A stretch of 64,000 nucleotides of DNA from Promethearchaeia archaeon. Lineage in GTDB: Archaea > Asgardarchaeota > Lokiarchaeia > Sigyniarchaeales > SOKP01. Every line of letters starts with the position of its first letter. Positions within the stretch are counted from its first letter, which is position 1. The DNA lies in contig JBATUM010000185.1 in assembly GCA_049671145.1 (NCBI GenBank), positions 1,828-65,827 on the forward strand, given 5' to 3'. Made by a program: the position numbers and the translations under genes. Under the pieces are notes generated by a model, which saw nothing but the letters and a program-made list of their open reading frames with translations, was not told the DNA's origin and did no database searches. Positions 37,034 to 63,406 of the stretch are shown in pieces.

Positions 37034-37504
37034 ATGGAAATAATAGTAAAAAAGGTAAGAACAGGAGCAGAATATGAAGGCAAAATTGCAAATTTTTGGA
37101 TTTTAGGGCAATTAAAAGATTCCTCATGTATATGGATCTTTGACAGTAAGGCATATGATTTAAGGAAACACATAAACAACAATGTTGAATGTTTAATTTT
37201 AGCTTTTTTAGTGAATCTTACTCAAAAAGATTATAAGCAAGATAACAAAGAATCAATAACTAATATAATTAGTGGAAATTTTATTAAATCTGCTCTAATA
37301 ACATCAGACTGGAAGTTGCCATGGAATTATAAAGAAAAGCACTTTGCGGCATTAAACACAAATAATGGTTTGGTTTTATTGGATTGGGCAGATCTTGAGA
37401 CAATACCTATTCGAGAAAACATCGAAATTAAATTTCAAGAGCTAGATGAATTAAAATTATATGTACAACGATTCGATTTGGTAGCTTGGCATCCAATTGA
37501 ATAA
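37034..37504 (+). CDS. Putative immunity protein 1 (AWHPIE family, 156 aa)
   Basis: It starts 60 nt after the giant ORF stop and is preceded by a TAGGAGCG Shine-Dalgarno-like sequence. No TM segment or signal peptide is visible. It is paralogous to 38503-38985 and to the remnant at 41297-41536, and its C-terminus reads VQRFDLVAWHPIE. Confidence 0.6.
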   Translation: MEIIVKKVRTGAEYEGKIANFWILGQLKDSSCIWIFDSKAYDLRKHINNNVECLILAFLVNLTQKDYKQDNKESITNIISGNFIKSALITSDWKLPWNYKEKHFAALNTNNGLVLLDWADLETIPIRENIEIKFQELDELKLYVQRFDLVAWHPIE

Positions 37505-37941: not shown

Positions 37942-38494
37942 TTTCTTTAGATCATCTCATTCATGGAATTTAGAATTAATTTATGAATTAAGAGGAAATG
38001 GTGTAACTTTTGATATTGCAAAAACAATAGGTCTAGCAAGAGAAGGTCGAGAAATCATAGAATTACCTGATGGCTCCTTTGCAATTAGTGGAAGGGAAAG
38101 TAGGGTTACATGGCTAGAATTAGGAAATCAATTTGGTGGTATGGAACATATTCTGTATGATACATTTATATTTGGCTCTTACGCTCCACACCCTACGCAT
38201 TTAGGCCATCTTGGGGATTTTGCAAAGTATGGTTATGATACAAAAGAAGAAATTGCTGAATTAATATTAAAAACAATCCATGAAAATGATTATTATATGT
38301 ATCTTGGTAGACATACTTATAGAATTGAGACTAAATCAGGTGAAACTATATATATAGGAATTATTATATCATCAAATGGATATATAATTAATGCCCATCC
38401 TTGGGATCGGGATCAGGATGATATTGATAATTTAAATAAAATCTTTCAGGAGATTGATGATTATTTCAATTTTAAATTATTTAATAATTGGTGA
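37937..38494 (+). pseudogene. Orphan CT2 cassette (start-less copy of the giant protein's C-terminal about 185 aa)
   Basis: The frame opens right after a stop at 37934-37936 and translates to VNFFRSSHSWNLELIYELRGNGVTFDIAKTIGLAREGREIIELPDGSFAISGRESRVTWLELGNQFGGMEHILYD..., collinear with giant residues VNFFRLSQ...EHILYD. The first ATG is internal, at 38141. Confidence 0.75.
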
Positions 38495-38502
38495 ATATTT
38501 TT

Positions 38503-38985
38503 ATGAAAGTTTTCTTAGAAAAAGTAAATATTGGGACTGAATCAGAGGGAGTAATATATGAATTCCTAATTCATGGTCGATTAAATAGTAATCAAATTAT
38601 ATATATTCATGATGACGCTGCGAAATTTGATCTTCGAAATTTTGAGAATCAGGTAGTTGAAATTCTTTTAGTAGCACATAATATTTCCCTTAAAACCACT
38701 TCAAGGAGACCTGATACTCAATTAATAGATAGGGAACTTAGAGTTATTAAAGGCAACTATCTTGGAAGATATGTTCTCCCTAATGAATGGCATGATTCGA
38801 AATATTTTCATAATGAGAGATCCTATAAGTATTGGCATCATCTTGATCTTCATGCGATTAAAGCGGAAAATGGAATATTTATAATTACGAATGAGAATGC
38901 TGAAAAGTTACCCATTGAAAAAGGAGAAAAAAGCTATTTCTATGTTGATAGTTTTTATATGATTGCATGGCATCCAATTGAATAA
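38503..38985 (+). CDS. Putative immunity protein 2 (AWHPIE family)
   Basis: An ATG at 38503 lies 8 nt after the CT2 stop (the track's TTG at 38488 is less likely). The N-terminus MKVFLEKVNIGTESEG parallels MEIIVKKVRTGAEYEG, and the C-terminus reads VDSFYMIAWHPIE. Confidence 0.6.
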   Translation: MKVFLEKVNIGTESEGVIYEFLIHGRLNSNQIIYIHDDAAKFDLRNFENQVVEILLVAHNISLKTTSRRPDTQLIDRELRVIKGNYLGRYVLPNEWHDSKYFHNERSYKYWHHLDLHAIKAENGIFIITNENAEKLPIEKGEKSYFYVDSFYMIAWHPIE

Positions 38986-41866: not shown

Positions 41867-44800
41867 TTGCTATGGGACAATTTATTGAGCATGGGAGCCT
41901 CTGATCCTGACGTATTTGTTGCTCTTGATTTTGATGACCTAAACTTAGATTATTTCTTAATGACTAGTGAGCTACCTGCTTATAATTTTAGACCGGGATA
42001 TTCATACCCAAATACCAATAATCTCGATAACGTATATCATACATATGCGGTTAATACATTAGGTTACGTGGAATATCTAGTACAACACTCCTCAAATAAT
42101 CAATTTGACACAATTCGCCCAGTATGTAAAGATGGAAGACCTCAATATGAATTTGTGGAGCGCGATAGCTACGATAAAGTGCTCCCGCAATCAGTTCTTT
42201 ACCAACCAATCGTATTAGATCAATATCGATTTAGCCAGCTCAGACCTCAGCTTGGTCATCTTATCGTAAATGTACAGTGTAGACCTCATGATTATAATAA
42301 TTCTATTGGTATTAACCCTTATGTGATGAATGCAGTCGAGGCAGATGTATATAAAGCCAAAATTCCACTCTTTCAGCATGAGTTTGATTATCCCGTGCAG
42401 AATGTTTACATCGATATTGTAAAAAGTAATCCTGAATATGAAAACGGAATACTCTCAAATTTGAATTTGAAATATCTTGCCCAAGACATTTATGTAAATG
42501 AATCATATTATGCATTTGAGCAAGGACAGCTCTACTTCACTGCCCCAATTGAGACCTTAATTACTCAAAAATATCCCCATTATAGGACCGCACTAAAGGA
42601 TATATGGCGGATAGAAGGTATGAATTCCAAGGTATACTATCGCCTCCATGTCTATTTTGATGTTTTTGTTCCTGATCTTACAGAAGAGACTCATAGATTA
42701 GCACTAGCCCAAGCATCTTCCTATGCAATTATGGATTATTTCAATCAATACACTTACGCTGAAGTCACAGCGAATATGATTTCTGAAATTGCTTATACTG
42801 AGACAGTAACCTTCTGGTCCACTATTATTAGCGCTCCTATGATGATGTTTGGTTCATACCTCGTAGAGGGTTTAGAAGAGGGGATAGCACGAGCAGGAGT
42901 GCAAATGGCGTTGACCACGCTTACCGCTCCGATAAAGGAAGTATTCCAAGAAATTATTATGGATGGATTTATAGAGGCATTCGCCGAGAATTTTGCGGAT
43001 ATAATGGGCTGGTCTGACGATGTTGGATATTGGCTCTCTGCTTTAGCAACCTCAGGTCGAGAAACTTTGTTGGGTCCCTTAGGAAAATTAACTTGGGGAA
43101 AGATTCGAGAAATGACTAAGTTGGACCTTGAGATAAAAAACACCGTTAAATTAATGCAGCAGGCAACTCAATCTCAAGATACCGATACTGCCAATAAACT
43201 TCGTCAGACATTAGAAGATCTATACCGACAACAAAGTGAAGCTAGACAACAGAAAGAACAGGAGAAAAAGACATGGAAAAAATTACTTGCCTCTGACTTT
43301 TTCAAGGGAGTTCTAATGACTATTCCATCTGCCTTTATTGGTGGATTTAACATATTTTCTTTCATGGGAATGCAAAATATGCTCTCAGGTACGTTGAGCC
43401 ATATTAATATAAAGACATTTTCTAAGATACGAGCGGTACAACAAGCGTCCAGAAGAGGAAAATTACAGCACATTCTTGATGAATACGGAATTGAGGGTGA
43501 TGTCCTTTCCAGAAATATCGAAAGCAACTTGAAACAGCCTACCGATATTGATGGAGAAGCGCTACATAATTTATTTAAAGAACAGAATGAAGAAGACCTT
43601 CCGGGAGTAAAGAATACTATAGTGTTTAACCCCAATCCTAAGGCTGCTAAAACTGTGGAAAAAATTAATATACCGAATAAGTTTGAGGAGATCCGATTAG
43701 CAAATTGGGTTGATGAATTAACAAAAGATTATAAATTTGAGGATAAGAAGAAAATCTCTGACCAAGTAAGTAAGACGACAAATAATGTTGAAGAGACTGA
43801 ACTTAAGTCTGACATCATGATCGGGGATCTATATGAAGGCTTATTTTACCAATTTAATAAAATTCGAATAGGGAATCTCTATCATGAATTTTATGCCACT
43901 GGAACTTTGCAAACCGATGGTAAGAAAGTCTCGAAATTACTCTATTCTAAGCAATTGATAACCGATGCGATTATTATGCTCAGTTCCACTAAATATAAAG
44001 GAGTCCCAATTATCATAGACCAAGAAATCAACTTCATAGTTCTAGAAGCTATTATAGCTAAAATAAAAGAAGGACACACGATCACCCAGCTTGAGAGAAT
44101 AATAATGGACATTGGCATCTTTATTGAAGGAAGATACGATATTATTGGAAAGGTAAATTCAGCGTCTGATTTCAATGAAAAATTCTTTGAAAAAACGAAG
44201 CGGAATGTAAAGAAACTTGGAATTCTAAAAGTAATAGGGAGATCGATGTTTGGCAAATTAAAACCAGGTGCTAAAGTTGCTTATGAGATTAAGAACGAGG
44301 GAGAAGTGTATAATGTAGATGATATTATTGTATTTTATCGGGATGGAGTGAAAATTGTCCATCGGGTTGAATATATATTCGAATCCAATGGTGAAATCTT
44401 CTATGTAACCGAGGGTGTGAATTCCGATACTAATCCATATGTAGATAGTGATCTTGTTTCCAACGATCAAGTTATTGGAAGAGTCACTGAGATGTCTGAA
44501 CAAGATTTATCCGCTCTTATAGAAATGGCAGAACAAGGGAAGGTCCCCTCTATTGAGGGTTTAGGAATGTCGAATGCTTTAGAAAAAGTCTATCAATCAC
44601 TATACAAAACAAGCAAAAGCCTTAGAAATATGAGGGATAATCCTATAGGCTTAACTAGGGAACAACTATTAGATTTTGTCATAAATAAAATTTCTGAGAT
44701 AAATGTAGAAGCTTTTACAGATATAGATAAAGTAAAGGAAGCAAGAATAAGAATATTAACTACATGTTATGAAATGATTGAAAGGAATATCTATTCTTGG

Positions 44801-45658
44801 TTTAGTAAAGACTTAAGTAAAAAAATGATTACTTATCTGTATAAAGAATTTATTTACCCTAGTGGCAAATCTACACATCCAGTTAGTTCAGATTATTTTA
44901 TAGACCAAGTACTCATCTTGGGTGAAGTTCTCAAAAGCTTGAATAATTATTACGAGCCAGAGACATTTAAGGAAAATCTAAAAGCTCTTCTCAATAGCAG
45001 AGAGTTTCGTTCTTATAATAATTTAGGTGGTTCTCAAAAGCAAGAATTCATTAATAACCTAATTAAAAATGTATGGAAAAATTCATATGAAAGTTTATGT
45101 TTAGAATTACTTTACAAAGAATTCACATACCAAGGTAAGGAAGCATTATATTACAAACCAGAAGATGTGCTTATTGAGAAAACGACTTGTACAACTGTTT
45201 TAAAAAGTCCTGGAGATAACTTTTTCCAACCTACTGAAATTTATCTAACTTTTGGTGAACATGAATTTAAATTTGATAAACGTGCTGGAAATGGTATAAT
45301 ACATATTTTTGCAGGACATTGGGCTGATTTCGCTAGATTACATCCTGATCTTAATACTCCTGAAGCCATAGCAAAATTCATATTTGAACTAATTAAGTCT
45401 CAGAAGGGAGTCGTTATGGAAGATGGAGGTAAAATAGTATATGCATTCCGATTTAAAGGGGAACAAAAAGTCCGTTATGTAGAACTTTTAGTTGATGATG
45501 GAGGACCAATGGGTCCAGAAGGTAGATTACATACAGCATATCCAGTAGATCTTACAAAATCCAAATATAAAGATAAATATATAGAATACAGAAATTATTT
45601 TATAAGACATTCAAATCTAATTCAAAATGATATAGACTTAAAAAATATACTAGTATAA
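41867..45658 (+). CDS. 5'-truncated paralog (orphan module) of the giant gene's 3' end, with a distinct CT3 domain
   Basis: The 1,263-codon ORF has only a TTG start. Its first about 500 aa are collinear with giant residues encoded at about 32520-34290. Decayed, frame-broken homology continues upstream (41700-41866). The C-terminus carries a third variant of the CT domain. Confidence 0.7.
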   Translation: MLWDNLLSMGASDPDVFVALDFDDLNLDYFLMTSELPAYNFRPGYSYPNTNNLDNVYHTYAVNTLGYVEYLVQHSSNNQFDTIRPVCKDGRPQYEFVERDSYDKVLPQSVLYQPIVLDQYRFSQLRPQLGHLIVNVQCRPHDYNNSIGINPYVMNAVEADVYKAKIPLFQHEFDYPVQNVYIDIVKSNPEYENGILSNLNLKYLAQDIYVNESYYAFEQGQLYFTAPIETLITQKYPHYRTALKDIWRIEGMNSKVYYRLHVYFDVFVPDLTEETHRLALAQASSYAIMDYFNQYTYAEVTANMISEIAYTETVTFWSTIISAPMMMFGSYLVEGLEEGIARAGVQMALTTLTAPIKEVFQEIIMDGFIEAFAENFADIMGWSDDVGYWLSALATSGRETLLGPLGKLTWGKIREMTKLDLEIKNTVKLMQQATQSQDTDTANKLRQTLEDLYRQQSEARQQKEQEKKTWKKLLASDFFKGVLMTIPSAFIGGFNIFSFMGMQNMLSGTLSHINIKTFSKIRAVQQASRRGKLQHILDEYGIEGDVLSRNIESNLKQPTDIDGEALHNLFKEQNEEDLPGVKNTIVFNPNPKAAKTVEKINIPNKFEEIRLANWVDELTKDYKFEDKKKISDQVSKTTNNVEETELKSDIMIGDLYEGLFYQFNKIRIGNLYHEFYATGTLQTDGKKVSKLLYSKQLITDAIIMLSSTKYKGVPIIIDQEINFIVLEAIIAKIKEGHTITQLERIIMDIGIFIEGRYDIIGKVNSASDFNEKFFEKTKRNVKKLGILKVIGRSMFGKLKPGAKVAYEIKNEGEVYNVDDIIVFYRDGVKIVHRVEYIFESNGEIFYVTEGVNSDTNPYVDSDLVSNDQVIGRVTEMSEQDLSALIEMAEQGKVPSIEGLGMSNALEKVYQSLYKTSKSLRNMRDNPIGLTREQLLDFVINKISEINVEAFTDIDKVKEARIRILTTCYEMIERNIYSWFSKDLSKKMITYLYKEFIYPSGKSTHPVSSDYFIDQVLILGEVLKSLNNYYEPETFKENLKALLNSREFRSYNNLGGSQKQEFINNLIKNVWKNSYESLCLELLYKEFTYQGKEALYYKPEDVLIEKTTCTTVLKSPGDNFFQPTEIYLTFGEHEFKFDKRAGNGIIHIFAGHWADFARLHPDLNTPEAIAKFIFELIKSQKGVVMEDGGKIVYAFRFKGEQKVRYVELLVDDGGPMGPEGRLHTAYPVDLTKSKYKDKYIEYRNYFIRHSNLIQNDIDLKNILV
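44237..44494 (+). other. Sec11/S26B signal-peptidase-like (S24/S26 fold) domain embedded in the orphan module
   Basis: The boxes occur in the canonical order: GRSMFG (box B, Ser), DDIIVF (box C), KIVHRV (box D, His), VTEGVNSDTNPYVD (box E, diverged from TKGDNNxxxD), then QVIGRV. Confidence 0.55.
45265..45655 (+). other. CT3 putative toxin domain (divergent member of the CT1/CT2 family)
   Basis: FKFDKRAGNGIIHIFAGHW...PEAIAKFIFELIKSQ...EGRLHTAYPVD aligns with CT1 FWLELGNQFSGFEHILYD...REDIATLILNTIKTQ...SNGYIISAYPQ. Confidence 0.5.
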
Positions 45659-50892: not shown

Positions 50893-53800
50893 TTGTTTAA
50901 TATGAGTTTAAAATATAGCGATTATCTGAAAAACAAAAAAAACGATAAAAAATATAATGAATCTCGTTTTGAAGATGAGGGTGATAATTCTGATTATTTA
51001 GATATTTGGACGGTAAATCCTTTTTATAAAGATATTAATACTAAAAAGTTAAGAGCCAAAATAGGCTTTTTTGCAATTTTAATCTTAGCAACATCGTTTC
51101 TAATTCTATCTCTCTTTTCTAAAATTAATTACTTAATAGGAGCAATAGCTTTCCTTCTAGTATTGCTATTTTATGAAAATATCTTTAACTTTTTCAACAA
51201 CCTCTTTACAAGCGTTCAGGGATTGAAGTGGATCAATCCATATAAAGATTTGATATTCTGGACAAATGATCCTGAAACCCTTGTAATGGTAAATAAGAAA
51301 AATTCGTTGGTATTTGCAATTCAAATATTTGAAGTTAAAACCTTGCCTGAGAATGTCCATCCTACTTTAAATCATTTTCTTAAAGCACTAAACAATGCAA
51401 ATATTAAATACTCGTATCAGGTCGTACAAACTCCATTGATGTATCAAAAACTCAAAATAAAGAAAATTAGTAATAATGAAACTTCAATTTATTTTAGTGT
51501 ATTTGATCAGAGAAAAGGCATTTTAACTAAAAGCAAAATTGATAATTTAGTTCAAACTGTACGGTTTAACTCAAAAATATTCAAGTCTCATCTTAGTTCG
51601 AATTTTCATCATACACAAATCTCCTTATTAAGCGGGCTTAATTTAATTAACGCGATTAGAGCAATTTTTTGTGGAATTAATCTTGATAAAATAGAGTTTA
51701 GAGACCTTAACAATGAGCATTCTAAAAACAATGTTCGTTACATAGTAAAATTAATAGTTATAGCTCTTTTTATAGGATTAGTATCTTATTTTTCAACGTA
51801 TTTTTCACTTCCTTGGATATTCATACTCTTATTAGATATTATAATCATAATGGCGCTCATTTTCATTTGGTGGGAAGATTTGTTATATTCTATTTCAAGG
51901 GTTTGTTTTCTTAATAATATAAACGTAAAATCTGTTGATCCCTTCATAGATATTAATTTTTATCGAATGAAAGGGTGTAGAGATACGCTTTTTCTTCTCT
52001 TAGATGATCACTTATTAATTGGACTCAAACAATTTAGCTTAAAACATGCGATTCAGAAATGCTTTATATATTCCGAGAAACTTTTCCGAGAGCTGAATAA
52101 TCAGAAAATAACTTTTATTTATACTCTTCAGGCTATACCTTTATTACCTAGCGATTTTAGCAAAAAATGTTCTAAATTTCTAAATGAAAAAGGATATTCA
52201 GATATGAAAAGAATATTTGGGGAAACAGTGCTTGGTGGAACATCTACTCCTCCAGCTAAAAATGCCCCCCTAGTGTTTAAAAATTGGTTAAACATGAGAT
52301 CAGGGATTTGGAACACAATTTTAACAGTGTCAGTATTATCATATCATTTTATTAATCCAAGAGATATTAGCCATTTTGAGGATGTAGAGGAAGACCTAAT
52401 AAGTAAGTCTGAAATTATGCTAAGGGCATTTGAGGACAATTTTCTCAATCTTAAATTAACTCAATTGAGAAATCATAAACTAATTAATGGATATCGATTT
52501 GTGTCTCTTAAAAATAGTTTATTCAAGGCAAAGAACACAGGTTTACCTTGTGTATATTTCCAAGGAAAGACCTTAATATATCTAAATGCTATTTCAAATG
52601 AATTTAAAAAAGGATTAGAAACCAAAATCGCTGCAGAATTTAATACTCCCCTCCATTTGAAAAATGATATTATTATAGGAGAAACCATCAATACTGAGTT
52701 CTTAGAAAAAGAAGGTGAATTAGGCTTTAAACTTGAGCAGGTAAAGCAACTACTAATTACTAATGGGCTTTCTGAGCAAAGAGAACACACAATGATGAAG
52801 ATTGTAACGGAACTTATAAAGATAGGAATACCATGTGTGATATTTGATTATTCAGGAAAGTGGTCGAAACTAATCAGTAATTTTAAAAATACGTACTTAG
52901 AAGAGACCTTTTTATATTTCAAATTAGGACGCTCATTTAGCCTGTATTTAATAGATTCAGAAGAAGATTATGATAAACATAACTTAGAATATTTAAACTT
53001 ATTTTACGATGTATTTGCGTTAGCCTTTAAGGAACAAAGAAAAAGTGTTGATCTTCTCAAAGAATCTGTAACAAAAAATAAGGAAATTGATATAAGCACA
53101 CTTGCTTTAGAGCATGAAATGGAAGAACAACTCTTTAAAAAAAATAATTATAATAGTTTGCTTGAGCTTTTACAGGGATTTATTGATTGGAGAGCTTTAT
53201 TTTCATCTAGATCGTTAAAATTTGAACAAGAAATTAAACCTATTGATTTTCTTAAAATTGATAAAACGATCATCATTGATTTATCTTTATTAGAAGAATT
53301 GAAACAAAAAAATTTCAGTACCTTTGTTCTCTTATCCAAATTCATACATCATCTTAGAAATGTAAATGATTTTCACAGAAAAGTTATTATTATTCCTCAT
53401 ATCGATCTTTTTTTTGATGCATATTACATTGATAATTACAATATGGTTGATTATGGTACAATCGAAAAGTTTTTAGATCCATTTCTTGACAATGGATTTG
53501 GGCTAATTTGTTCAGCAAATCAAATACGATATCTGCATTCTCATGTGTTTACCTACTTTCCAAATATCATTACATTTAAAGCTACGGATCCTCGAGATAT
53601 TGCGGTGTTAAAAAACACAATAAATTTGCAAGAATTACAAGGAACAGGTTATTATAGTTCAAAACGAAATAATACATACCAAATTGATTATCTTATGAAT
53701 TTGCGAAAAAATGAAGTCATTGTAAAAAGATCTGATATTAATCAACCATTTCCGGGAGAAATTAATTACGATCAACTCCAATTAACCCCTCTCCTTTCAC

Positions 53801-54717
53801 AGGATACAATAGCGGTTTATATGGAAAGGCAAGGATATGCTTATAAAGATCATGAGAGACGTATCTTAGAAAGAGCTAAAGAGACACTTTTTGAAAAAGA
53901 TTTTGGAATCTATTCGGAATTTATTGATGATATAATTAAGTTTTTGGCTAATATAAGTGCCGTTGATAAGATTGGGGGGAATTATGAGCATAAACTTAAA
54001 GAAGAACTTCTAAAATATATTCATTCAAACGCAATACATAAAACGAAAGATAAGAAGAAAATTAAGCAATTAAGAGATGCCCTTTTCCGCATTCTTAAGC
54101 AACAAAGTTATTTAGTTGAGAGTCACCCACTTCAAGCGAGTGGAGGGCAAACTACACGCACTTGCTATAAAGTCGGACAAAAATATCATAACGCACTTAA
54201 GGATTATTATAGCTCAAAAAAAAGGTTAGCCCCTAATATTTCTGTTGATGTAATTGAAAAGAATATAAAGAATAATTCTAAGGGGCTTAATATGTTAAAA
54301 GGGGTATCTTCAAATGATACAATCAGAAGTGATAAATTTAAAGATATAGTATTTAGAGAATTGGGAAGTTTTATATGGCAATTATTTAAATTGCATGACG
54401 CAAATGAGAATAAACACTACGAAACATCATTAAAAGTTGGTAAAGATTTGATCTTTAATTATCTTACATCATTATACAAGATATTTCTTAAAATGAACGG
54501 AGGTCAAACTCCTGAAAGCATAAAACTTCCCTCATTTATTACGGCTCTGACTTCTTATAAAGTTATTCCATTTACTATGAATATGATTAAAGATTATTGT
54601 CAAAAATCAAAGCAATTATCCCAAAATGCAGAAAATCCCGAAAAGAATGCTCATGAATTAGAAGATTTAATCATGGAATTCTACAAGACTACTAGAATGC
54701 ATTTTATAACAAATTGA
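50893..54717 (+). CDS. Membrane-anchored HerA/VirB4-like protein with degenerate Walker A and B (pseudo-ATPase)
   Basis: There are two TM hairpins (about 51058-51175 and 51733-51875). The C-terminal half is collinear with the next gene, but its P-loop reads TNGLSEQREHT against MSGLTGVGKTT, and its Walker B reads VIIIPHIDLF against VIMMDEVGSI. Shared blocks are IIIDLSLL/VYIDLSGF and NIITFKATDPRDI/IKILFRTDKEDL. The ATG at 50902 may be the true start. Confidence 0.6.
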   Translation: MFNMSLKYSDYLKNKKNDKKYNESRFEDEGDNSDYLDIWTVNPFYKDINTKKLRAKIGFFAILILATSFLILSLFSKINYLIGAIAFLLVLLFYENIFNFFNNLFTSVQGLKWINPYKDLIFWTNDPETLVMVNKKNSLVFAIQIFEVKTLPENVHPTLNHFLKALNNANIKYSYQVVQTPLMYQKLKIKKISNNETSIYFSVFDQRKGILTKSKIDNLVQTVRFNSKIFKSHLSSNFHHTQISLLSGLNLINAIRAIFCGINLDKIEFRDLNNEHSKNNVRYIVKLIVIALFIGLVSYFSTYFSLPWIFILLLDIIIIMALIFIWWEDLLYSISRVCFLNNINVKSVDPFIDINFYRMKGCRDTLFLLLDDHLLIGLKQFSLKHAIQKCFIYSEKLFRELNNQKITFIYTLQAIPLLPSDFSKKCSKFLNEKGYSDMKRIFGETVLGGTSTPPAKNAPLVFKNWLNMRSGIWNTILTVSVLSYHFINPRDISHFEDVEEDLISKSEIMLRAFEDNFLNLKLTQLRNHKLINGYRFVSLKNSLFKAKNTGLPCVYFQGKTLIYLNAISNEFKKGLETKIAAEFNTPLHLKNDIIIGETINTEFLEKEGELGFKLEQVKQLLITNGLSEQREHTMMKIVTELIKIGIPCVIFDYSGKWSKLISNFKNTYLEETFLYFKLGRSFSLYLIDSEEDYDKHNLEYLNLFYDVFALAFKEQRKSVDLLKESVTKNKEIDISTLALEHEMEEQLFKKNNYNSLLELLQGFIDWRALFSSRSLKFEQEIKPIDFLKIDKTIIIDLSLLEELKQKNFSTFVLLSKFIHHLRNVNDFHRKVIIIPHIDLFFDAYYIDNYNMVDYGTIEKFLDPFLDNGFGLICSANQIRYLHSHVFTYFPNIITFKATDPRDIAVLKNTINLQELQGTGYYSSKRNNTYQIDYLMNLRKNEVIVKRSDINQPFPGEINYDQLQLTPLLSQDTIAVYMERQGYAYKDHERRILERAKETLFEKDFGIYSEFIDDIIKFLANISAVDKIGGNYEHKLKEELLKYIHSNAIHKTKDKKKIKQLRDALFRILKQQSYLVESHPLQASGGQTTRTCYKVGQKYHNALKDYYSSKKRLAPNISVDVIEKNIKNNSKGLNMLKGVSSNDTIRSDKFKDIVFRELGSFIWQLFKLHDANENKHYETSLKVGKDLIFNYLTSLYKIFLKMNGGQTPESIKLPSFITALTSYKVIPFTMNMIKDYCQKSKQLSQNAENPEKNAHELEDLIMEFYKTTRMHFITN

Positions 54718-54825: not shown

Positions 54826-56772
54826 GTGCCTAATATGAAGAACAGTAGTGAAAATAATAACTCATGGCTCTGTAATCCTTTTGGAGATGCCAGAGTTTAT
54901 ACTACAAGGATTACGCTAGACGAGGAATTTTCGTGGGAATTCTTTTTTAAAGAAGATTCTAAAAAGGAAGCTTATCAAAGTGCTGAGTCGTTTCTCCTTT
55001 ATTTAAAAGAGGTTTATCCAGGGTTAGCAGGACAAGTGAAAGTCAGAGGAATAAATTATATGGACTTACAAACAAAGAAGCAGATCTTTGAACTTATTTT
55101 ACCCAATCCTGTATTTGCGAAAAAAATCAACTTAATCAAAAAAATAATGAATTTATTTCCAGTGAGCAAAGAGTTTAAAAAGAGTTTTTTTATCTCATGG
55201 CAGGAAGATGATTCTGTCATTAAAGAACTGGAAAATTTTGCGAAACTAAAGCAACATATTACTTTAGATGAGAATTATAAAGCAAAAGTATTCTTTCTAA
55301 TTGAGCCAAAATTCAATAATAATTCAGAAATAAGTAACCAGGTAATTGAAGAAATAAAAGAATATATGGCGATGGATATACGCAATGCGGATAATGAAAA
55401 TGCATCTATAAGCGACGCACCTCCGGATACATGGAGATATATCTTAGAGGAGATGGTGTTTTGGAAGAATATTTTAGATTGCGATACAGGCAGGTTTTAT
55501 CGACGCGTGGAAGGAGGAATCCCTCCAGAAATGATACCTGCTTTTATTAGTCCTAAAGTAGTTGATTTTAGTTTTAATCATGATATTCCTTTAGATAAAG
55601 CATTTACTATTAAAAATGAGAAGATTGGGTTTAATTCTGACTTTAGAAACAATAGTTCTCGAATTCTTTTAGGATATTATATCAAACATGGGGTTATTAC
55701 TGAGAATCCTGTTTATCTACACTTAGAAGATTTAGTCCAACATATATTTATGTCAGGATTAACTGGTGTAGGGAAAACTACTATAGAATCCCAATTAAAA
55801 CAACGTATAAAGAAGACAGGTAATCCCTGTGGAGTGTTAACGATCAAATTGTTGAAAGGAAATGAATCTTTTATGTTTAGCTCAGAGATTATGCTCAAAA
55901 AAGGAGATCCCAAATTACGAGTACCTTATATCATGGAAGGAGAAGAAATTGACCAAATTATAGAACAAGTTGCTGGATACTCTGTTGCTTCAGTGGGATT
56001 AAAAAACGTTGTTGTTTCAATTATGGAAATCGTATTAACCCATGAATATGAAAATAAAGGTAAATTTCCAGCAAAAATCAAGCAAGCTTTTGCACGCGTT
56101 CATTTACATCTGGAGGAGAATCCTTACCATAAAAAATTTCAAACTAACATTTTGAAAGCTTTAGAAAATCGGGTAATGAAACTTTTATCAAATCCAATTC
56201 TGGAGAAAATTTTGGAAACGGGACCAATCCCAGAGTGGTTTATTGAATGGCAAAATGGTAAAGATGTGTATATAGATTTATCAGGATTTAAGAAAAGTGC
56301 GCAAAGACTGCTGGTTCACGCGATCTTCCAATTAATTCGTACTTGTTCCCCTGAATTAGATGCAAAAAAACTGATGCATAGTAAAGATCCTTCTCAGAAG
56401 CTTAAAAATGTCATAATGATGGATGAAGTAGGCTCTATTTTAGGAAAACCAAAGTATCAAAGTTATGATGATGACGAAACTATAACGAAGCATTACTTAG
56501 AAATTGTGTTTGAAGAATTTTTATCCGCCTTCAGAAGTAGAGGAATTGGTATAATCCTTGGGGATCATATGCCTTCCAGATTATTTGAAGGAGTTTATAA
56601 ACTTCCTAGCATAAAAATATTGTTTAGAACAGATAAAGAGGATTTACAAAAGTTTGGGTTAGATGTAGAGGATATCATGGTTATTGACACTCTAAAAAAT
56701 CGGTTTGCATTCATTAAAGATGGTGTTAATTCAAGAAGATTTCTATTCTATACGACTGACTACGAATTATAA
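54826..56772 (+). CDS. HerA/FtsK/VirB4-superfamily ATPase (intact Walker A/B)
   Basis: Walker A is GLTGVGKTT and Walker B is NVIMMDEVGS. The family-typical YIDLSGF block and the C-terminal GIGIILGDHMPS...IKILFRTD block are present. The ATG at 54835 is a possible alternative to the GTG start. Confidence 0.7.
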   Translation: MPNMKNSSENNNSWLCNPFGDARVYTTRITLDEEFSWEFFFKEDSKKEAYQSAESFLLYLKEVYPGLAGQVKVRGINYMDLQTKKQIFELILPNPVFAKKINLIKKIMNLFPVSKEFKKSFFISWQEDDSVIKELENFAKLKQHITLDENYKAKVFFLIEPKFNNNSEISNQVIEEIKEYMAMDIRNADNENASISDAPPDTWRYILEEMVFWKNILDCDTGRFYRRVEGGIPPEMIPAFISPKVVDFSFNHDIPLDKAFTIKNEKIGFNSDFRNNSSRILLGYYIKHGVITENPVYLHLEDLVQHIFMSGLTGVGKTTIESQLKQRIKKTGNPCGVLTIKLLKGNESFMFSSEIMLKKGDPKLRVPYIMEGEEIDQIIEQVAGYSVASVGLKNVVVSIMEIVLTHEYENKGKFPAKIKQAFARVHLHLEENPYHKKFQTNILKALENRVMKLLSNPILEKILETGPIPEWFIEWQNGKDVYIDLSGFKKSAQRLLVHAIFQLIRTCSPELDAKKLMHSKDPSQKLKNVIMMDEVGSILGKPKYQSYDDDETITKHYLEIVFEEFLSAFRSRGIGIILGDHMPSRLFEGVYKLPSIKILFRTDKEDLQKFGLDVEDIMVIDTLKNRFAFIKDGVNSRRFLFYTTDYEL

Positions 56773-56803
56773 TTATAGGAGGGAGGGAATCTGAATTAGT
56801 GAA

Positions 56804-59800
56804 GTGGGGGATGAGTGGGATGAATATGAAAAAGATGAAGACACGAATCCTGAGAAAGAAAAGGATTTAGACGAGTTAGAGGAAGGATATGACCCATTTT
56901 CGTTGAAATCAAAGGTTATGGAAAATGAAGAAGAACAAGAGTATGATCCCTTTTCTTTGCATAGAGATGAGTGTGATACAGAAACAACTGAAGATTACGA
57001 TCCTTTTTCCTTAACTGAGGGCGATTCTGCGAATGAAATGGATGAAGATTATGATCCATTTTCTTTACATAGAGATGAAGTAAGTGAGGAACAAACTGGA
57101 GAAGAAGACATTACTCAAAAAGAAGAACGAGAGGAAATATGTGAAAATATTGATTCCCAATCTACTCTATTAGTGCAAAGAGAGTCTAATAAAGATGGAG
57201 AAACTTGTGATGAACGAGCAGAGGAAAATAGTGAGCAAGAGAAAAATCAAACTGAAGATACTGAAGAAATAATAATGCCTGATCCAGAAAAATATGAACA
57301 AGACCAAGAGACAATTTATGATCCAGCTGAGATTGATTTTATTAGAGATATGGAAGAACTAGGGAGTATTTTAAAAGAATCTGAAGAAAGTAGAGGCATT
57401 TCTGAAGAGGAATTAGAGGAATATGATAATACAGGTTTTAATGCAGAGCAAGCATATCAAGAAATAAAAGAAAAAAATAGAGAAAAAGAATTAGAGCAAA
57501 AGGAATTGCCTTTAGAGGAACATGATCTCCAAAATACGGTTGAGAAGGCGGAGGAGCAACATAATGAAAATTTAAAAGAGAGAGAATGCAAGGAAGAAGA
57601 TGAATTACCAAAGGAAATAACCGATTCGGAGGAATTTCAATACCTTTGGGAAGAATATGATAGACTTGAACAAGAAGGAACGAACCTCGAAGAGATTTCT
57701 GAATTAATGCATGAAGCGGAAGAGACGTATCAAATGTTAAAAAATTATGAGGAAGAATTAGAAGAAATCTATGAACGACAAGAAAAGCAAGGTTTAGAAT
57801 CAATTGACCATAAGAACGAGGAAAAACCAGAAGATTATAGAATAGAAGTTGAGAGTGTATATGAAGCAGAATATTTTATTGATGCTGAAATACAATTACA
57901 AACAGAAGGTAAATCATCAGAAGAAATAACCAATGAAATGCAAAAAGTTGAAGAAAAATATGATTTTGAGGAAAAAGTGGAAAAACTTCATGAAAAACAG
58001 AGAAAGGATAAATATAATTCAGTTGATCATGAGAATGAAGAGGATGAAGATGACCAAAGGGAGGAGATTGACAGAGTAGATGTGATAGAAGGTGTTGTAG
58101 AAGCTGAAGAAGAATTCCATAAGCAAGGAAAATCTCAAAAAGAAATAGATGAGAAGACTGAAAGAATTGCCAATAAATTTTATAAAAATGAAATAGAAGA
58201 ACAGCTACAAAATAGACCAGAACAAGAGGTTAATAAGGAACTTGGAACTGAAGTTACTGAACCTGAATTTGCTTTAGAAGAACGAGATCAGATCAACCAC
58301 ACCTCTTTTGATAATAATGATCAAAAAATTGAAATTTATCCAGAGATGGAAAATAGAGAAATATTAGAAGAAATCGATATAGAAGTAGATGACTCCACAA
58401 ATGATAGAGGATCGTATCAAGAAAGTATGGAAAAAGCTATTGAAAAAGAAAACAAACCAGAAACCGAAGAATCACAGGAAAAAGAATATGAACTCCTCCA
58501 ACAATTATATCACCAAGATACAGGGAGAAGACCTCAATATAGAGGAAGAGAAACAAAAGAGTATAGTCAATGGTTAGAACATCAAAAGTTAAAAACTAAG
58601 AAAGCCAAAGAAAAAGAAGTGAAAGAACAAGAAGAGGAGAGATGGAAAGAGATACTTAAAGATTGGATAGAAGAATCTAAAGATGAAATGCCCAGCTCTG
58701 AACTTAAATTAGTTTTAAAAGAGATAATTCAAAAGTTCGAAATATTAGAAGAGTTATATAGAGAAGGTGTAAATTTAACTGAAATCGAAAGAGATCATTG
58801 GCTCTCTAAATTAATAAAGCTTCAAAACAAATATCCAATTCATTTACATTTATATCAAAATATCTACGGATTTAAAGTATATGTTCAAGAGAGTCATCCT
58901 TGGGATATTAATCGAATAAAAAACAAATTTCTTAGACATTTGGTTAAAAAATATAAAATTTTAAAACAAAACTTAAAAAATATTAATTTCGGCAATATAA
59001 AAAGTTCAGAATTAAGAAGCATTATTAAAAAATATCATAAATTTACGTTAAATAAATATTTAAAAGTTAAATATCCAAATAGAGGCTTTCAAATAACCAA
59101 ACAATTTTTCAAATGGTTAAAGACTGACGGAAACGCTGCTAAGATGGATAAAATAACTAATATTTGTAAAGAAATTAATACTAATCAAGAACTATATAAC
59201 TTTTTTATTTATCTGGTTATAAATTCATTATTATCTCTTAAAAAAATCTCTGAAAAATTTAAATTTCTCGGTTTTAATATCCACTCATCCGCTTTGGGAA
59301 AATATGCTAAAAAAATTTTAGGAGCAGAATATAAAATTCGATTTCCAAGTGGCAAGAAGAGAATTCAATCATTTAATAACAAAAATTTATGTTTTCACAA
59401 TCTCTTAAATAAAGTTTTATTACAGAAATTTTATGAATTTCGGGAAGAATTTCCTAAAAGTTATCCAAATACAGGTAGGATTATAGGTGATAAGTTTATT
59501 TTATGGATTAAGAAAAATTTGAAAAATTTTGATGAAAAGAGATATTTACTTAAATTGATTGAAAGAGTTAATGGAAATAGAGAGATTACTCAATATATAA
59601 TAAGTTTAATTTACCATTCCGAATTAACTCAATTGGATATTGTAAATGAGCTTTGGAAGAAAAACTTAAAAATTTCCCGAGAAGCAATAAGAAATATTGC
59701 GGAACAGAATTTGTCTTATGATAAATACAAAGAAAGATTTTCAAGATATAAAAAATCTTATAATTATGATGAGCAATTATCATCAAATAGCTCTCTTTAT

Positions 59801-61603
59801 CAAAGTTTATTAAATCCAGTATTACATACCTCATTTAAAAATTATTACCAAACTATTGGGAAGTACGCTAATATAGGAAGAAAAATTTCTAATTCCTTTA
59901 AATCATGGATTAAAAGATCAAAATATAAACTTAATAAGCGTCAAAGAATCCTTAATTTAATTGAAAACATCAATAAAAATAATGAAGTTGAAAGATTTAT
60001 CATCAATATTATTCGAAATTCAATAGATAATTCAAAAGAAAGAACTTCTTTAGGCGAAATTTCGAGAATGTTTAAAAACTTTGGCTTAGATGTCTCTCGA
60101 ATGACTGTAACTAGAATCGCATTGGAAAAAGTATTTAATAATGATCTAGAGATATTCCAAAAATATTTTAAACCTGGACAAGATGAAGAATTTAAAGATA
60201 TTGATCTTCAAAACTTATTCTTTGACGATATAACTAATTTTGGAGTAGTAAGTAAATTTAAAAGCTTTAGAAGAATAACGAGAGAGGAAGGAAGAGAGTT
60301 ATATCCGAATATAGGTACAAAGATTTCACCATATTTTATTGAATGGATAAAAAAAAATATTAAAAATGATGATGAAGAGAAGCAAAAATTAATTCAATTA
60401 TGCGAAAAAATAGACGAAGAGTCGCAAATTTTACAACTAATCCTTCACAGAACATTATCTTCAGATTTAAATATATCTGAAATCGCGCTTGAAATGGAAA
60501 ATCTAGGACTTAATGGTCAACGGGGTACCATTTCAAAAAACGTATTAAAGTATATATATAATAATGATAAAGAAAATCTAAACTTAAGATTTCCATCAGA
60601 TTTAAGTTCAGAATTGGGAACTTGGACTCATATATGCATTAGAGATTTATTATCTAAGCATTTTATATCCATTAATTATAAATATTATTCAGAAGTACAA
60701 ATATTTCCTCCTAGTAATAAAAAGGCAGATGGGATTTTACTAAATATTAGACAAAATAGATATTTGCATGAAAAGTTAAATCTTTCTAAAGATGGAAATA
60801 GATTTAAAAACAAAATGGGAATTAAAAATAATATCATTCAAAAAATTAAAGCTATTCAATTTGATTTTACAAGTGATATTTCTGATGAAAATATTATAGA
60901 CAAATGCATAAAATATCAAAATCCAAATATTTTATTGATTATCGTATGTACAAACTGGAAAAATAAAAAGGCTAATAGAAGTTTGCCTCCTCTCTCGAAT
61001 AAAGTTAAGAATAAAGATAATCTTTGTATTATTAGTGCTAAATTATTCACTGAATTTATAGGATTGAATCAAACTTTAAAACAAGAATTCCTCAATATTA
61101 TTTCTAAAAGCAATAAATCAAATTTAACTTTCTTAAAACAATATCATAAGAAAAATTATCCAAATCTTACTAATTCTGGAACTATAGAATTGAAAAATGA
61201 TATTGGCTCCAAATTATTTAATAGAGTTTTTAAAGATCTTGAAATAAGCGAGGTAAATGAACTCATTGATACCTCAAAACTTGCATCTAAATTTGTTTCA
61301 TTTTGTTTGGAAAATATAAATTCCCAATCGAATCAGCATGAATTAAAATCTCATATAATATCAAAAGGTGGATATAAAGGAGGATACTTCAAATTTACAA
61401 CTAAAAATTTATATGAATTTAAGAAATTTGTAAAAACAAAAAATCTAAATTTAAACTATTTGTCTAAGATTTTGGCAAATATACATGGAATTCGTAATAT
61501 TTTTTATAAAAAGATATTAAGATATAATTCAACACTTAAGAGAAGGACAGAACAAAGAGTAATTTTGATTAAGAAATCTTTTTTAGAAAGTCAAATACAC
61601 TGA
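56804..61603 (+). CDS. Large (1,599 aa) acidic/coiled-coil protein with four HTH-like modules and a possible nuclease-like end
   Basis: The GTG start is preceded by TAGGAGGGAGGG. The N-terminus has four (E/D)YDPFSL motifs, followed by a long E/K-rich region with about 70-aa repeats, four about 125-aa repeats each ending ...RFPS/KPG, and a C-terminal alpha/beta region. Confidence 0.75.
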   Translation: MGDEWDEYEKDEDTNPEKEKDLDELEEGYDPFSLKSKVMENEEEQEYDPFSLHRDECDTETTEDYDPFSLTEGDSANEMDEDYDPFSLHRDEVSEEQTGEEDITQKEEREEICENIDSQSTLLVQRESNKDGETCDERAEENSEQEKNQTEDTEEIIMPDPEKYEQDQETIYDPAEIDFIRDMEELGSILKESEESRGISEEELEEYDNTGFNAEQAYQEIKEKNREKELEQKELPLEEHDLQNTVEKAEEQHNENLKERECKEEDELPKEITDSEEFQYLWEEYDRLEQEGTNLEEISELMHEAEETYQMLKNYEEELEEIYERQEKQGLESIDHKNEEKPEDYRIEVESVYEAEYFIDAEIQLQTEGKSSEEITNEMQKVEEKYDFEEKVEKLHEKQRKDKYNSVDHENEEDEDDQREEIDRVDVIEGVVEAEEEFHKQGKSQKEIDEKTERIANKFYKNEIEEQLQNRPEQEVNKELGTEVTEPEFALEERDQINHTSFDNNDQKIEIYPEMENREILEEIDIEVDDSTNDRGSYQESMEKAIEKENKPETEESQEKEYELLQQLYHQDTGRRPQYRGRETKEYSQWLEHQKLKTKKAKEKEVKEQEEERWKEILKDWIEESKDEMPSSELKLVLKEIIQKFEILEELYREGVNLTEIERDHWLSKLIKLQNKYPIHLHLYQNIYGFKVYVQESHPWDINRIKNKFLRHLVKKYKILKQNLKNINFGNIKSSELRSIIKKYHKFTLNKYLKVKYPNRGFQITKQFFKWLKTDGNAAKMDKITNICKEINTNQELYNFFIYLVINSLLSLKKISEKFKFLGFNIHSSALGKYAKKILGAEYKIRFPSGKKRIQSFNNKNLCFHNLLNKVLLQKFYEFREEFPKSYPNTGRIIGDKFILWIKKNLKNFDEKRYLLKLIERVNGNREITQYIISLIYHSELTQLDIVNELWKKNLKISREAIRNIAEQNLSYDKYKERFSRYKKSYNYDEQLSSNSSLYQSLLNPVLHTSFKNYYQTIGKYANIGRKISNSFKSWIKRSKYKLNKRQRILNLIENINKNNEVERFIINIIRNSIDNSKERTSLGEISRMFKNFGLDVSRMTVTRIALEKVFNNDLEIFQKYFKPGQDEEFKDIDLQNLFFDDITNFGVVSKFKSFRRITREEGRELYPNIGTKISPYFIEWIKKNIKNDDEEKQKLIQLCEKIDEESQILQLILHRTLSSDLNISEIALEMENLGLNGQRGTISKNVLKYIYNNDKENLNLRFPSDLSSELGTWTHICIRDLLSKHFISINYKYYSEVQIFPPSNKKADGILLNIRQNRYLHEKLNLSKDGNRFKNKMGIKNNIIQKIKAIQFDFTSDISDENIIDKCIKYQNPNILLIIVCTNWKNKKANRSLPPLSNKVKNKDNLCIISAKLFTEFIGLNQTLKQEFLNIISKSNKSNLTFLKQYHKKNYPNLTNSGTIELKNDIGSKLFNRVFKDLEISEVNELIDTSKLASKFVSFCLENINSQSNQHELKSHIISKGGYKGGYFKFTTKNLYEFKKFVKTKNLNLNYLSKILANIHGIRNIFYKKILRYNSTLKRRTEQRVILIKKSFLESQIH
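56887..57067 (+). repeat. Four YDPFSL short linear motifs in an acidic context
   Basis: GYDPFSL, EYDPFSL, DYDPFSL and DYDPFSL are spaced 12-13 aa apart. The second and fourth are followed by HRDE. Confidence 0.9.
59069..60600 (+). repeat. Four tandem modules of about 125 aa with a helix-turn-helix-like core
   Basis: Each module begins (K/S/L)Y(P/A)N-x-G-x-x-I-x-x-x-F-x-x-W(I/L)K and contains a segment such as LSLKKISEKFKFLGFNIHSSALGKYAKKIL, LTQLDIVNELWKKNLKISREAIRNIAEQNL, SLGEISRMFKNFGLDVSRMTVTRIALEKVF or NISEIALEMENLGLNGQRGTISKNVLKYIY. Confidence 0.6.
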
Positions 61604-62803: not shown

Positions 62804-63406
62804 TCATATTAATAACTCTAAATTTAATCTTATTAATCGAATTACAGAAGAAGCTAAATATGATTGAGTTCCTAAACTTAAATTTGGTAGTTTTAACTCA
62901 ATCAATTCTTTTGATTTTAATATTTCACCAGTTTGACTACCAATAACGAAAATAATGTGCTCTTGTGATGATATCTCCTTTATATATTTAAAGAAATCTT
63001 GTCCACTCTCATCTAGAACATATATCGTATATTTTTGCTTTTTATAGGCGTTTAACGTATTAAAGATATCTTGATTAATGTATTTAATATTTTTTAAAGG
63101 GTTTTTACTATACTTTAGCTGACCAGTTCTATTTTGGATTAAATCTACAAAATATTCTGTAAGTAGAATTTCATTTTTTGGAAATACCTCCTCATCCAAT
63201 GATTCAGGGTCAAATACAAAAGTACCATATTTTTCTAAAAACACCCAAATTTGGATATTATTATTAAATCCTTTTTGATTCAATAAGGCAGCTAGAATGC
63301 ATCTTGAAATTACATCTAATCTTCCCGTTGAACCAGGAATTTCTTTAATTGTATAATTTGTAATATCTACACTACTAGATTTAATGAAGAAAAGTATTTC
63401 CATCAA
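62804..63406 (-). CDS. trmY: tRNA (pseudouridine54-N1)-methyltransferase TrmY-like SPOUT protein
   Basis: IKEIPGSTGRLDVISRCILAAL matches the conserved TrmY/DUF358 N-terminal motif (LPGSxGRLDxxCRC). The length, about 200 aa, is typical. Confidence 0.65.
   Translation of the reverse strand: MMEILFFIKSSSVDITNYTIKEIPGSTGRLDVISRCILAALLNQKGFNNNIQIWVFLEKYGTFVFDPESLDEEVFPKNEILLTEYFVDLIQNRTGQLKYSKNPLKNIKYINQDIFNTLNAYKKQKYTIYVLDESGQDFFKYIKEISSQEHIIFVIGSQTGEILKSKELIELKLPNLSLGTQSYLASSVIRLIRLNLELLI

Follow-up and report, generated by a model that had tools for sequence, protein, structure and literature searches.

A tandem helix-turn-helix array joined to a predicted variant of the restriction-endonuclease fold, encoded beside an FtsK/HerA-type ATPase in an Asgard archaeon

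The DNA analyzed here, which we call the window, is a stretch of 64,000 nucleotides from a Promethearchaeia archaeon (assembly GCA_049671145.1, contig JBATUM010000185.1, positions 1,828 to 65,827 of the forward strand). Our subject is a single open reading frame (ORF) on the forward strand of the window, the target gene (56804-61603; taken from the ORF list and its translation), which encodes 1,599 amino acids when read from a GTG codon; this is the earliest possible start and the true start is uncertain. The protein carries four tandem helix-turn-helix (HTH) modules followed by a C-terminal domain, C1, that is predicted to have a restriction-endonuclease-like fold, and its gene directly follows that of an FtsK/HerA-superfamily ATPase. 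The original prediction concerned positions 59069-60957, which lie entirely inside this ORF and run from residue 756 (the K of KYPNRG) to about residue 1385 (the W of CTNW). Scans of the protein against Pfam, NCBIfam, PADLOC and PHROGs gave no meaningful family match. Its nearest relatives are annotated as Promethearchaeota (Asgard) and include P0001 (82%) and contig L003 ('Promethearchaeota archaeon DZ2M.350'), whose orthologue of the target is 70% identical overall.

The original prediction described four tandem homologous units, and when the modules were compared with each other by BLASTP they aligned over ~100 amino acids with 23-36% identity (E-values of 8e-6 to 7e-13). As a non-circular test of the repeats, we used a hidden Markov model (HMM) built only from the three modules of P0003, a homologue 27% identical to the target. 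This independent HMM gave exactly four matches in the target, at 38-66 bits, and none in 500 shuffled decoys. The matches correspond to module 1 (M1, residues 736-848, 59009-59347; 45 bits, isoelectric point (pI) 10.2, with BLASTP matches to the other modules), module 2 (M2, residues 864-980, 59393-59743; 38 bits, pI 9.8, BLASTP E 1e-12 to M3 and M4), module 3 (M3, residues 1007-1122, 59822-60169; 66 bits, pI 10.2) and module 4 (M4, residues 1148-1265, 60245-60598; 61.5 bits, near-neutral), all on the forward strand. The four modules are therefore homologous repeats, each predicted to finish in a three-helix HTH. The proposed unit length of about 125 amino acids fits the conserved core (~115-127 amino acids) but not the spacing of the YPN boxes, which is 130, 134 and 146 amino acids, and the RFPS ending ascribed to every unit is found literally in M1 and M4 only, M2 having RFSRY and M3 having KYFKPG instead. 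Little or no variation is seen at Y-x-N-x-G, at F..W, at an Ile of the HTH and at the Phe of 'RFP'. M4 directly abuts C1 through a conserved RFPxD junction.

The HTH-like segment that had been read into each unit was recovered both by modeling and in the relatives. We modeled M4 with AlphaFold, using a 12-row alignment in which the module columns were deepened with the other modules. The model (predicted local distance difference test (pLDDT) scores of 77-93, and 84-93 over the HTH helices) contains seven helices and a short hairpin after YPN, and its final three helices, at the end of the unit (residues 1208-1219, 1224-1233 and 1240-1250, with an LGLNGQ turn), are predicted to have the usual HTH layout. 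The last ~60 positions of the module HMM align to a lone HTH unit that precedes C1 in short relatives, and homologous units in the relatives score above the Pfam HTH thresholds e.g. HTH_6 in P0009 (33.9 bits), Sigma70_r4 in P0024 (30.4 bits) and HTH_23 in P0070 (E 9e-19); units of P0064 and P0075 are also above curated HTH thresholds. Profiles of the modules produced only chance-level matches to Protein Data Bank (PDB) sequences, and a Foldseek search with a 459-residue model of mixed confidence, in which the first 125 residues alone were confident, returned no match. We infer, on good grounds, that the modules bind DNA, with the basic pI of M1-M3 (9.8-10.2) as indirect support.

C1 occupies residues 1267-1473 (60602-61222, forward strand) and is predicted to consist of a restriction-endonuclease-like fold followed by a helical tail, on the basis of its HMMER family, AlphaFold, Foldseek and residue conservation. 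No match to it emerged from Pfam, NCBIfam, PADLOC, PHROGs or the sequences in the PDB. When 1.84 billion representatives were searched exhaustively with HMMER, 128 proteins were found at E ≤ 1e-3 and 93 at E ≤ 1e-10; about 100 of these proteins contain C1, in almost every case as their C-terminal or near-C-terminal part, and all members with a named source are Asgard (Promethearchaeota, Lokiarchaeota or Heimdallarchaeaceae). The family consensus reads G..tH.CIN.LLT.FF…KYYSEP.IYP….(P)DGLILN…FL..L…IKAIQFD(F/Y)T.D.S..NI..K..KYQ.P..L.IVGT.W…P…I.YP.NIR(I/V)IS..LF..LIGL. A literature search found no description of the family. C1 is thus a previously undescribed family, outside every described one, and we call it a variant rather than a canonical member of the PD-(D/E)xK fold because the lysine of the (D/E)-x-K motif is never present. 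In P0003 an in-frame TAG breaks the C1 coding region (L001 11861-12303, contig SDNY01000074.1); beyond it the homology continues in frame until a frameshift, so that HMM positions 2-98, 102-149 and 150-205 lie in three pieces; this could reflect a pseudogene, an assembly error or stop-codon recoding.

The AlphaFold prediction for C1, made from 15 sequences, has a pLDDT of 83.5 and a predicted template modeling (TM) score of 0.82. Its elements follow the order α1 (10-32), β1 (37-41), β2 (51-58), a helical insert, β3 (93-99), α2 (104-114), β4 (119-125) and β5 (150-154), after which come further helices. The predicted order is α-βββ-α-β i.e. that of the restriction-endonuclease (PD-(D/E)xK) fold, and the acidic residues fall at the PD-(D/E)xK positions of the model, in line with the strand order and acidic residues that the original prediction had assigned to a restriction-endonuclease-like core. 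When the C1 model was compared with the PDB by Foldseek, the top eight matches were all nucleases (MspJI, the R2 endonuclease domain, Can2 and Bax1), as were ~18 of the top 50, with Card1, Ecl18kI and the influenza PA endonuclease appearing further down. The best neighbours are PD-(D/E)xK nucleases. These matches are weak, none having an E below 0.01: MspJI is the closest (4f0p, E 0.011, probability 0.85, TM-score ~0.3), followed by the R2 endonuclease (8ibz, probability 0.84, TM-score 0.39). The named structural matches in a viral library included Vsr-like, RecB-family, MmcB-like and 'PD-(D/E)XK' proteins.

We scored the conservation of individual residues over 90 full-length C1 domains. The C-terminal strings quoted in the original prediction are present as written, and the E, D and D-x-T picked out there are E1297, D1309 and D1354-F-T1356, which belong to a larger polar constellation on the forward strand: H1276 (60629), E1297 (60692), D1309 (60728), D1354 (60863), T1356 (60869), N1363, K1367 (60902), K1370 (60911), Y1371 and Q1372. 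On the model, H1276 maps to α1, E1297 to β1, D1309 (model residue 52) to the start of β2, D1354-F-T1356 to β3 and K1367, K1370, Y1371 and Q1372 to α2. The residue at position 1309 is Asp in 68 of the 90 members, with Pro before it in 19 (a literal 'PD'), and position 1354 is acidic in 61 of the 90, with Asp and Glu alternating. The set H-E-D-(D/E)-T-N-K-K-Y-Q is near-invariant in ~60 of the 90 domains despite an overall identity of only ~30%, and was intact in all of the 13 genomic loci that were checked. None of the ~60 proteins with an intact site has a membrane helix predicted by a simple hydropathy window. In the other ~30 domains the His, both acids and both lysines have been lost together (E→N, D→H/N, D→I/V/L, K→various), with the structural residues T, G, W and N retained. 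In most full-length members of this site-less branch (P0029, P0043, P0074 and ~25 further cluster representatives), C1 lies behind a single membrane helix at the end of a very large protein with Laminin_G_3 / DUF2341 ectodomains (e.g. P0029 with 1,473 amino acids, P0043 with 3,037 and P0074 with 2,349); in these giant surface proteins C1 would be a dead nuclease-fold domain on the cytoplasmic tail.

The conservation of these polar residues as a block, and their loss as a block, makes the constellation look like an active site and links both α2 lysines to the acids. Cfr10I/NgoMIV obtain a catalytic residue from a helix ~14-16 residues after β3, and in C1 K1370 sits 14 residues past T1356. We infer that K1367 or K1370 takes over the role of the canonical lysine. 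PD-(D/E)xK enzymes that are active with the motif Lys replaced by E, Q or N have been described (PMC4081073). The chance that C1 actually catalyzes a reaction is at best even and perhaps a little less.

The domains that accompany C1 in its relatives point to nucleic acids. Copies with an intact site occur together with (i) YPN-type modules (P0004-P0009), (ii) arrays of short or canonical HTH units (P0010, P0012, P0024, P0064, P0070 and P0075) or (iii) a treble-clef zinc finger (P0034 and P0056). In P0058, P0063 and P0072, HTH-like units ending 'MW(S/P)' precede an intact-site C1, which is in turn followed by a C-terminal DEDD exonuclease (RNase_T, E 8e-11 to 1e-5) with its motifs visible, i.e. 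DxE (DIETTG), D (FD) and Hx4D.

The same observations bear on the alternative that C1 has the restriction-endonuclease fold without catalytic activity and serves to grip DNA, sense a ligand or form homotypic dimers, the target being a multi-HTH transcription or chromatin factor. The missing lysine would be expected of such a protein, and giant surface proteins carry the fold, stripped of its polar site residues, on their predicted cytoplasmic tails, hence a clear non-catalytic use. In addition, eight of the family loci share a syntenic position next to a GH57 glycosidase gene, indicating that part of the C1 family is stably chromosomal, and an orthologous group fixed in this way resembles an ordinary chromosomal regulator. 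However, three acids, two lysines and a His that stay near-invariant through ~60 such divergent members are typical of an active site, the interchange of Asp and Glu at the motif position is also active-site-like, and both the fusion of C1 to intact DEDD exonucleases and its recurrent pairing with a HerA-type ATPase (see below) argue against a non-catalytic domain. We regard the non-catalytic alternative as unlikely, while still giving it real weight.

The gene immediately upstream of the target (54826-56772, forward strand) encodes a 648-amino-acid P-loop ATPase of the FtsK/HerA superfamily, with Walker A (GLTGVGKTT) and Walker B (VIMMDEV) motifs. It scored 24.0 bits against Pfam DUF87 (cut-off 23.2) and E 6.4e-11 against the PADLOC HerA model, and in PDB searches its family profile matched STIV B204 (6e-5) and HerA (4d2i, 0.016). 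It is preceded by a gene for a 1,274-amino-acid membrane protein (50893-54717, forward strand) with pairs of hydrophobic helices near residues 55-110 and 285-330, and the three genes form a co-directional trio with gaps of 108 and 31 nt. The original prediction had called the two upstream genes a membrane HerA/VirB4 pair; the HerA part of this applies to the 648-amino-acid protein, whereas the 1,274-amino-acid membrane protein is not assignable to any ATPase family, had no match in Pfam, NCBIfam or the PDB, and is conserved in L003 only (61% identity). The idea that the membrane protein is a degenerate paralogue of the ATPase was not borne out (BLASTP E 0.12, profile score ~0 bits); the sole hint of it was a collinear stretch close to the ATPase motifs at the C-terminus.

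The first five other family loci that we looked at had unrelated neighbours, and the link to the ATPase emerged from a later scan of metagenomes, which added 13 family loci; adjacency could be evaluated in 14 loci. In six of these 14 (the window, L003, L011, L017, L018 and L019), the gene immediately preceding the C1 gene encodes such an ATPase. The ATPases of the other five are 26-34% identical to that of the window, and the C1 regions of L011 and L017-L019 are 35-38% identical to that of the target, L003 carrying the close orthologue. The genes are separated by anything from an overlap to 24 nt, apart from the gap in the window and one of ~590 nt in L018, the ATPase of which has seven predicted transmembrane helices. 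The six ATPase-paired loci are spread over three clades of a rough neighbour-joining C1 tree. One clade has further neighbours: a VWA (CoxE-type) gene on the opposite strand follows in L005 (11390-15127), L011 (3456-4388) and L019 (9067-11839), with a MoxR-like AAA gene also following in two of the loci, and L005 has retained these neighbours while having no HerA-like ATPase upstream. When the window was compared with L003, the ATPases were only 32% identical, as against 61% and 70% for the flanking genes and 87% at the DNA level for the 3' 3.4 kb of the target, and no DNA similarity to L003 was detectable at window positions 54972-57263, i.e. in the ATPase gene and the 5' part of the target that codes for acidic sequence. 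To judge from these alignments, this looks like either the replacement of a cassette or rapid divergence.

The arrangement of the trio had led to the proposal of a DNA-transfer apparatus, i.e. that the target is the DNA-handling part of a membrane machine for conjugation, uptake or export built around the membrane protein and a HerA/VirB4-like ATPase. FtsK/HerA ATPases are DNA pumps, and the tight co-directional spacing of three genes, the first of which encodes a four-helix membrane protein, the seven predicted transmembrane helices of the L018 ATPase and the fact that the best PDB match of the ATPase profile is a viral genome-packaging ATPase (STIV B204) are all consistent with such a machine. 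On the other side, the ATPase falls far short of any VirB4, VirD4 or TraD assignment (TraD 18.5 bits against a curated cut-off of 366; TrwB_AAD_bind 13.4 against 20.5), and no relaxase, pore, pilus, pilin or integrase gene was present among the ORFs scanned at 37-64 kb, some small ORFs lying outside the scan. The membrane gene was found only in the closest relative, neither a tRNA gene in the 64 kb window nor flanking terminal repeats were found, no viral contig carried a C1 domain, and eight of the evaluable loci have no ATPase neighbour. The proposal of a DNA-transfer apparatus is not supported by this comparison, and we consider it quite unlikely.

Several of these results also bear on whether the target could be a selfish element, homing-endonuclease-like or transposase-like, that has multiplied in Asgard genomes. 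The family is large and paralogous, the number of its DNA-binding repeats varies, an in-frame stop and a frameshift disrupt at least one of its copies (the P0003 locus), and there is weak resemblance to transposase-type HTH models (Tc3 and ISL3). Against this, orthologues are syntenic across the eight GH57-linked loci, no transposase or intein context was seen, and searches around three family genes and the trio yielded no credible terminal inverted repeats, only AT-rich chance matches. We rejected the mobile-element idea on the absence of such repeats, of a tRNA gene in the window and of copies on viral contigs, and a selfish element appears highly improbable.

The reading that we favour is that the target is a lineage-specific Asgard protein that is targeted to DNA by its HTH array and acts, through its PD-(D/E)xK-fold domain and as the partner of the upstream FtsK/HerA-type ATPase, in the cutting or gripping of DNA; we hold the case for it to be evenly balanced. 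In this scheme the basic HTH array would act as a reader or clamp on an extended stretch of DNA, and C1 would cleave, or at minimum grip, the DNA bound by the array, with the acids E1297, D1309 and D/E1354 binding metal. The HerA-type motor, which may be membrane-located in some loci, would feed or remodel the DNA or activate the nuclease, and the pair could function in the processing of DNA ends or in defence against foreign DNA. The acidic N-terminus may mask the basic array. A more elaborate version, which we think very unlikely, is that C1 is a two-faced, Asgard-only system: in soluble proteins it would be a catalytically active nuclease with a relocated lysine, directed by HTH arrays and driven by an FtsK/HerA motor that is membrane-bound in some cases, and the dead copies on the cytoplasmic tails of giant adhesin-like surface proteins would dock soluble HTH-C1 proteins by like-with-like pairing.

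Several points count against the HTH-guided, ATPase-coupled nuclease that we favour. C1 has no sequence-level link to known nuclease families in Pfam, NCBIfam, PDB sequences or hhalign comparisons; in hhalign, single E. coli sequences (Mrr, McrC and the N-terminal part of HsdR) scored no higher against the C1 profile than unrelated controls did, such single-sequence templates being weak. The absence of the canonical (D/E)-x-K lysine, seen already in the original prediction, extends to the whole family, the +2 position being Thr in 80 of the 90 domains and Lys in none, and we know of no documented active variant with Thr at this position. The target's own modules remain below the Pfam HTH thresholds, the nearest matches, both in M3, being to HTH_32 (16.7 against 33.7 bits) and a Tc3-type HTH (13.1 against 31.5 bits). 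In addition, eight of the 14 evaluable loci have no ATPase neighbour, and the adjacency rests on these 14 loci and on a quick neighbour-joining tree.

By analogy with known systems, and if its domains work as predicted, the target would have its closest functional counterpart in a FokI-style enzyme, here working with a HerA-type ATPase. FokI has an N-terminal recognition region of several HTH-type subdomains and a separate C-terminal PD-(D/E)xK cleavage domain. The target has the same layout as such Type IIS enzymes, which suggests that the array recognizes a site and that C1 cuts nearby, but it has no sequence similarity to them, has Thr in place of the motif Lys, carries a 560-amino-acid acidic N-terminus and has an ATPase rather than a methylase as its partner. 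The neighbouring ORFs that were scanned include no DNA methyltransferase as a FokI-like partner; the sole methyltransferase among the scanned ORFs is a tRNA-type SPOUT enzyme (62804-63406, PF04013), which lies downstream of the target on the other strand together with a CDP-alcohol phosphatidyltransferase gene. MspJI and the Mrr-type (Type IV) enzymes also join a DNA-binding domain to a nuclease domain, and MspJI is the nearest to the C1 model; these enzymes use a variant motif, D...QxK, whereas C1 has no lysine there, its TM-score is ~0.3 and its hhalign comparison with Mrr is no better than controls. R2 pairs Myb/HTH-type DNA-binding motifs with a PD-(D/E)xK-fold endonuclease that is the second-best neighbour of C1, but the target has no reverse transcriptase, no hallmarks of a mobile element and no sequence similarity to R2.

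The locus also resembles the archaeal HerA-NurA and bacterial HerA-DUF4297 pairs, in that genes for an FtsK/HerA ATPase and a nuclease-like protein adjoin and this arrangement is seen again in deeply divergent relatives. HerA–nuclease and other nuclease-NTPase pairs have been described in end resection and anti-phage defence (PMC11291478, PMC12977600 and bioRxiv 10.1101/2025.07.10.664194). The target differs from NurA and DUF4297/Cap4 in having no Pfam or PADLOC match and an HTH array of four modules of its own, with a membrane protein added at the window locus. For the active site, precedents for substituted or relocated residues are found in BamHI, BglII, NotI, MspI and the Cfr10I/NgoMIV/Ecl18kI group; in the Cfr10I/NgoMIV group it is the acidic residue that moves, whereas in C1 we propose, from conservation, that it is the lysine.

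If C1 is an active nuclease, the restriction-endonuclease superfamily would gain a site arrangement that is not on record, in which an acid triad and a Thr are combined with lysines of the helix that follows, and there would be an Asgard-specific pairing of ATPase and nuclease, DNA defence and repair in Asgard archaea bearing on the origin of the eukaryotic systems. If C1 is not catalytic, the proteins would simply be a lineage-specific family of multi-HTH DNA-binding proteins, of modest interest. The tandem HTH array would be a natural reader of long DNA sites and may interest those who build programmable DNA binders, and the inactivated C1 copies offer a concrete handle on the role of the cytoplasmic tails of the giant surface proteins. 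Another family with the restriction fold will not surprise specialists; the lysine-less site, the restriction to Asgard archaea, the pairing with an ATPase and the dead copies on surface proteins are the aspects worth following up.

The remaining parts of the target, all on the forward strand, flank the array and C1. By composition and motif scan, residues 1-560 (56804-58483) form a polyacidic region with a net charge of -140 and a pI of 4.1, which is probably disordered. Within it lie four evenly spaced (E/D)YDPFSL repeats (residues 29-88, 56888-57067), found by motif scan and as DNA direct repeat D1. These are not kept in the L003/P0001 orthologue, which has DIDELADEYDQDSDEE repeats without DPF in their place, and they may be a short linear motif or merely a fast-evolving acidic repeat. 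Residues 561-735 (58484-59008) form a basic linker, in which YHQDTGRRPQYRGRETKEYSQWL (residues 569-596) resembles by eye the start of a module and is a possible degenerate fifth 'YPN box', with no significant match to the module HMMs (independent E-value 0.25; E 46); another YPN-like box at about residues 1449-1507 was likewise not significant. C1 is followed by C2 (residues 1474-1599, 61223-61603), a basic extension with a pI of 10.0 and an AlphaFold confidence below 50, which is common only to the closest relatives (P0002, P0004, P0005 and P0007) and in which profile stretches reach positions 467-469 of 471.

The G+C content of the window is low (26-39%). It is 0.33-0.39 over most of a giant ORF (101-36973, forward strand, 12,290 amino acids) and, from about 36000 on, most 2-kb windows lie at 0.26-0.31 and two at 0.33 and 0.37, this stretch consisting mostly of ORFs with no family match. 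The giant ORF has the look of a polymorphic-toxin-type protein. Its residues 10805-11383 share 30% identity with the beginning of ORF 41867-45658 (E 4e-52), its final 94 amino acids share 39% with the small ORF 38141-38494, and the tips of the giant ORF and of ORF 41867-45658 had no Pfam match. The ORFs behind the individual tips are homologous to one another (E 6e-18). Besides the giant ORF, the group comprises ORFs 37034-37504, 38141-38494, 38488-38985 and 41867-45658. These similarities suggest that the region holds toxin tips with immunity genes and spare cassettes.

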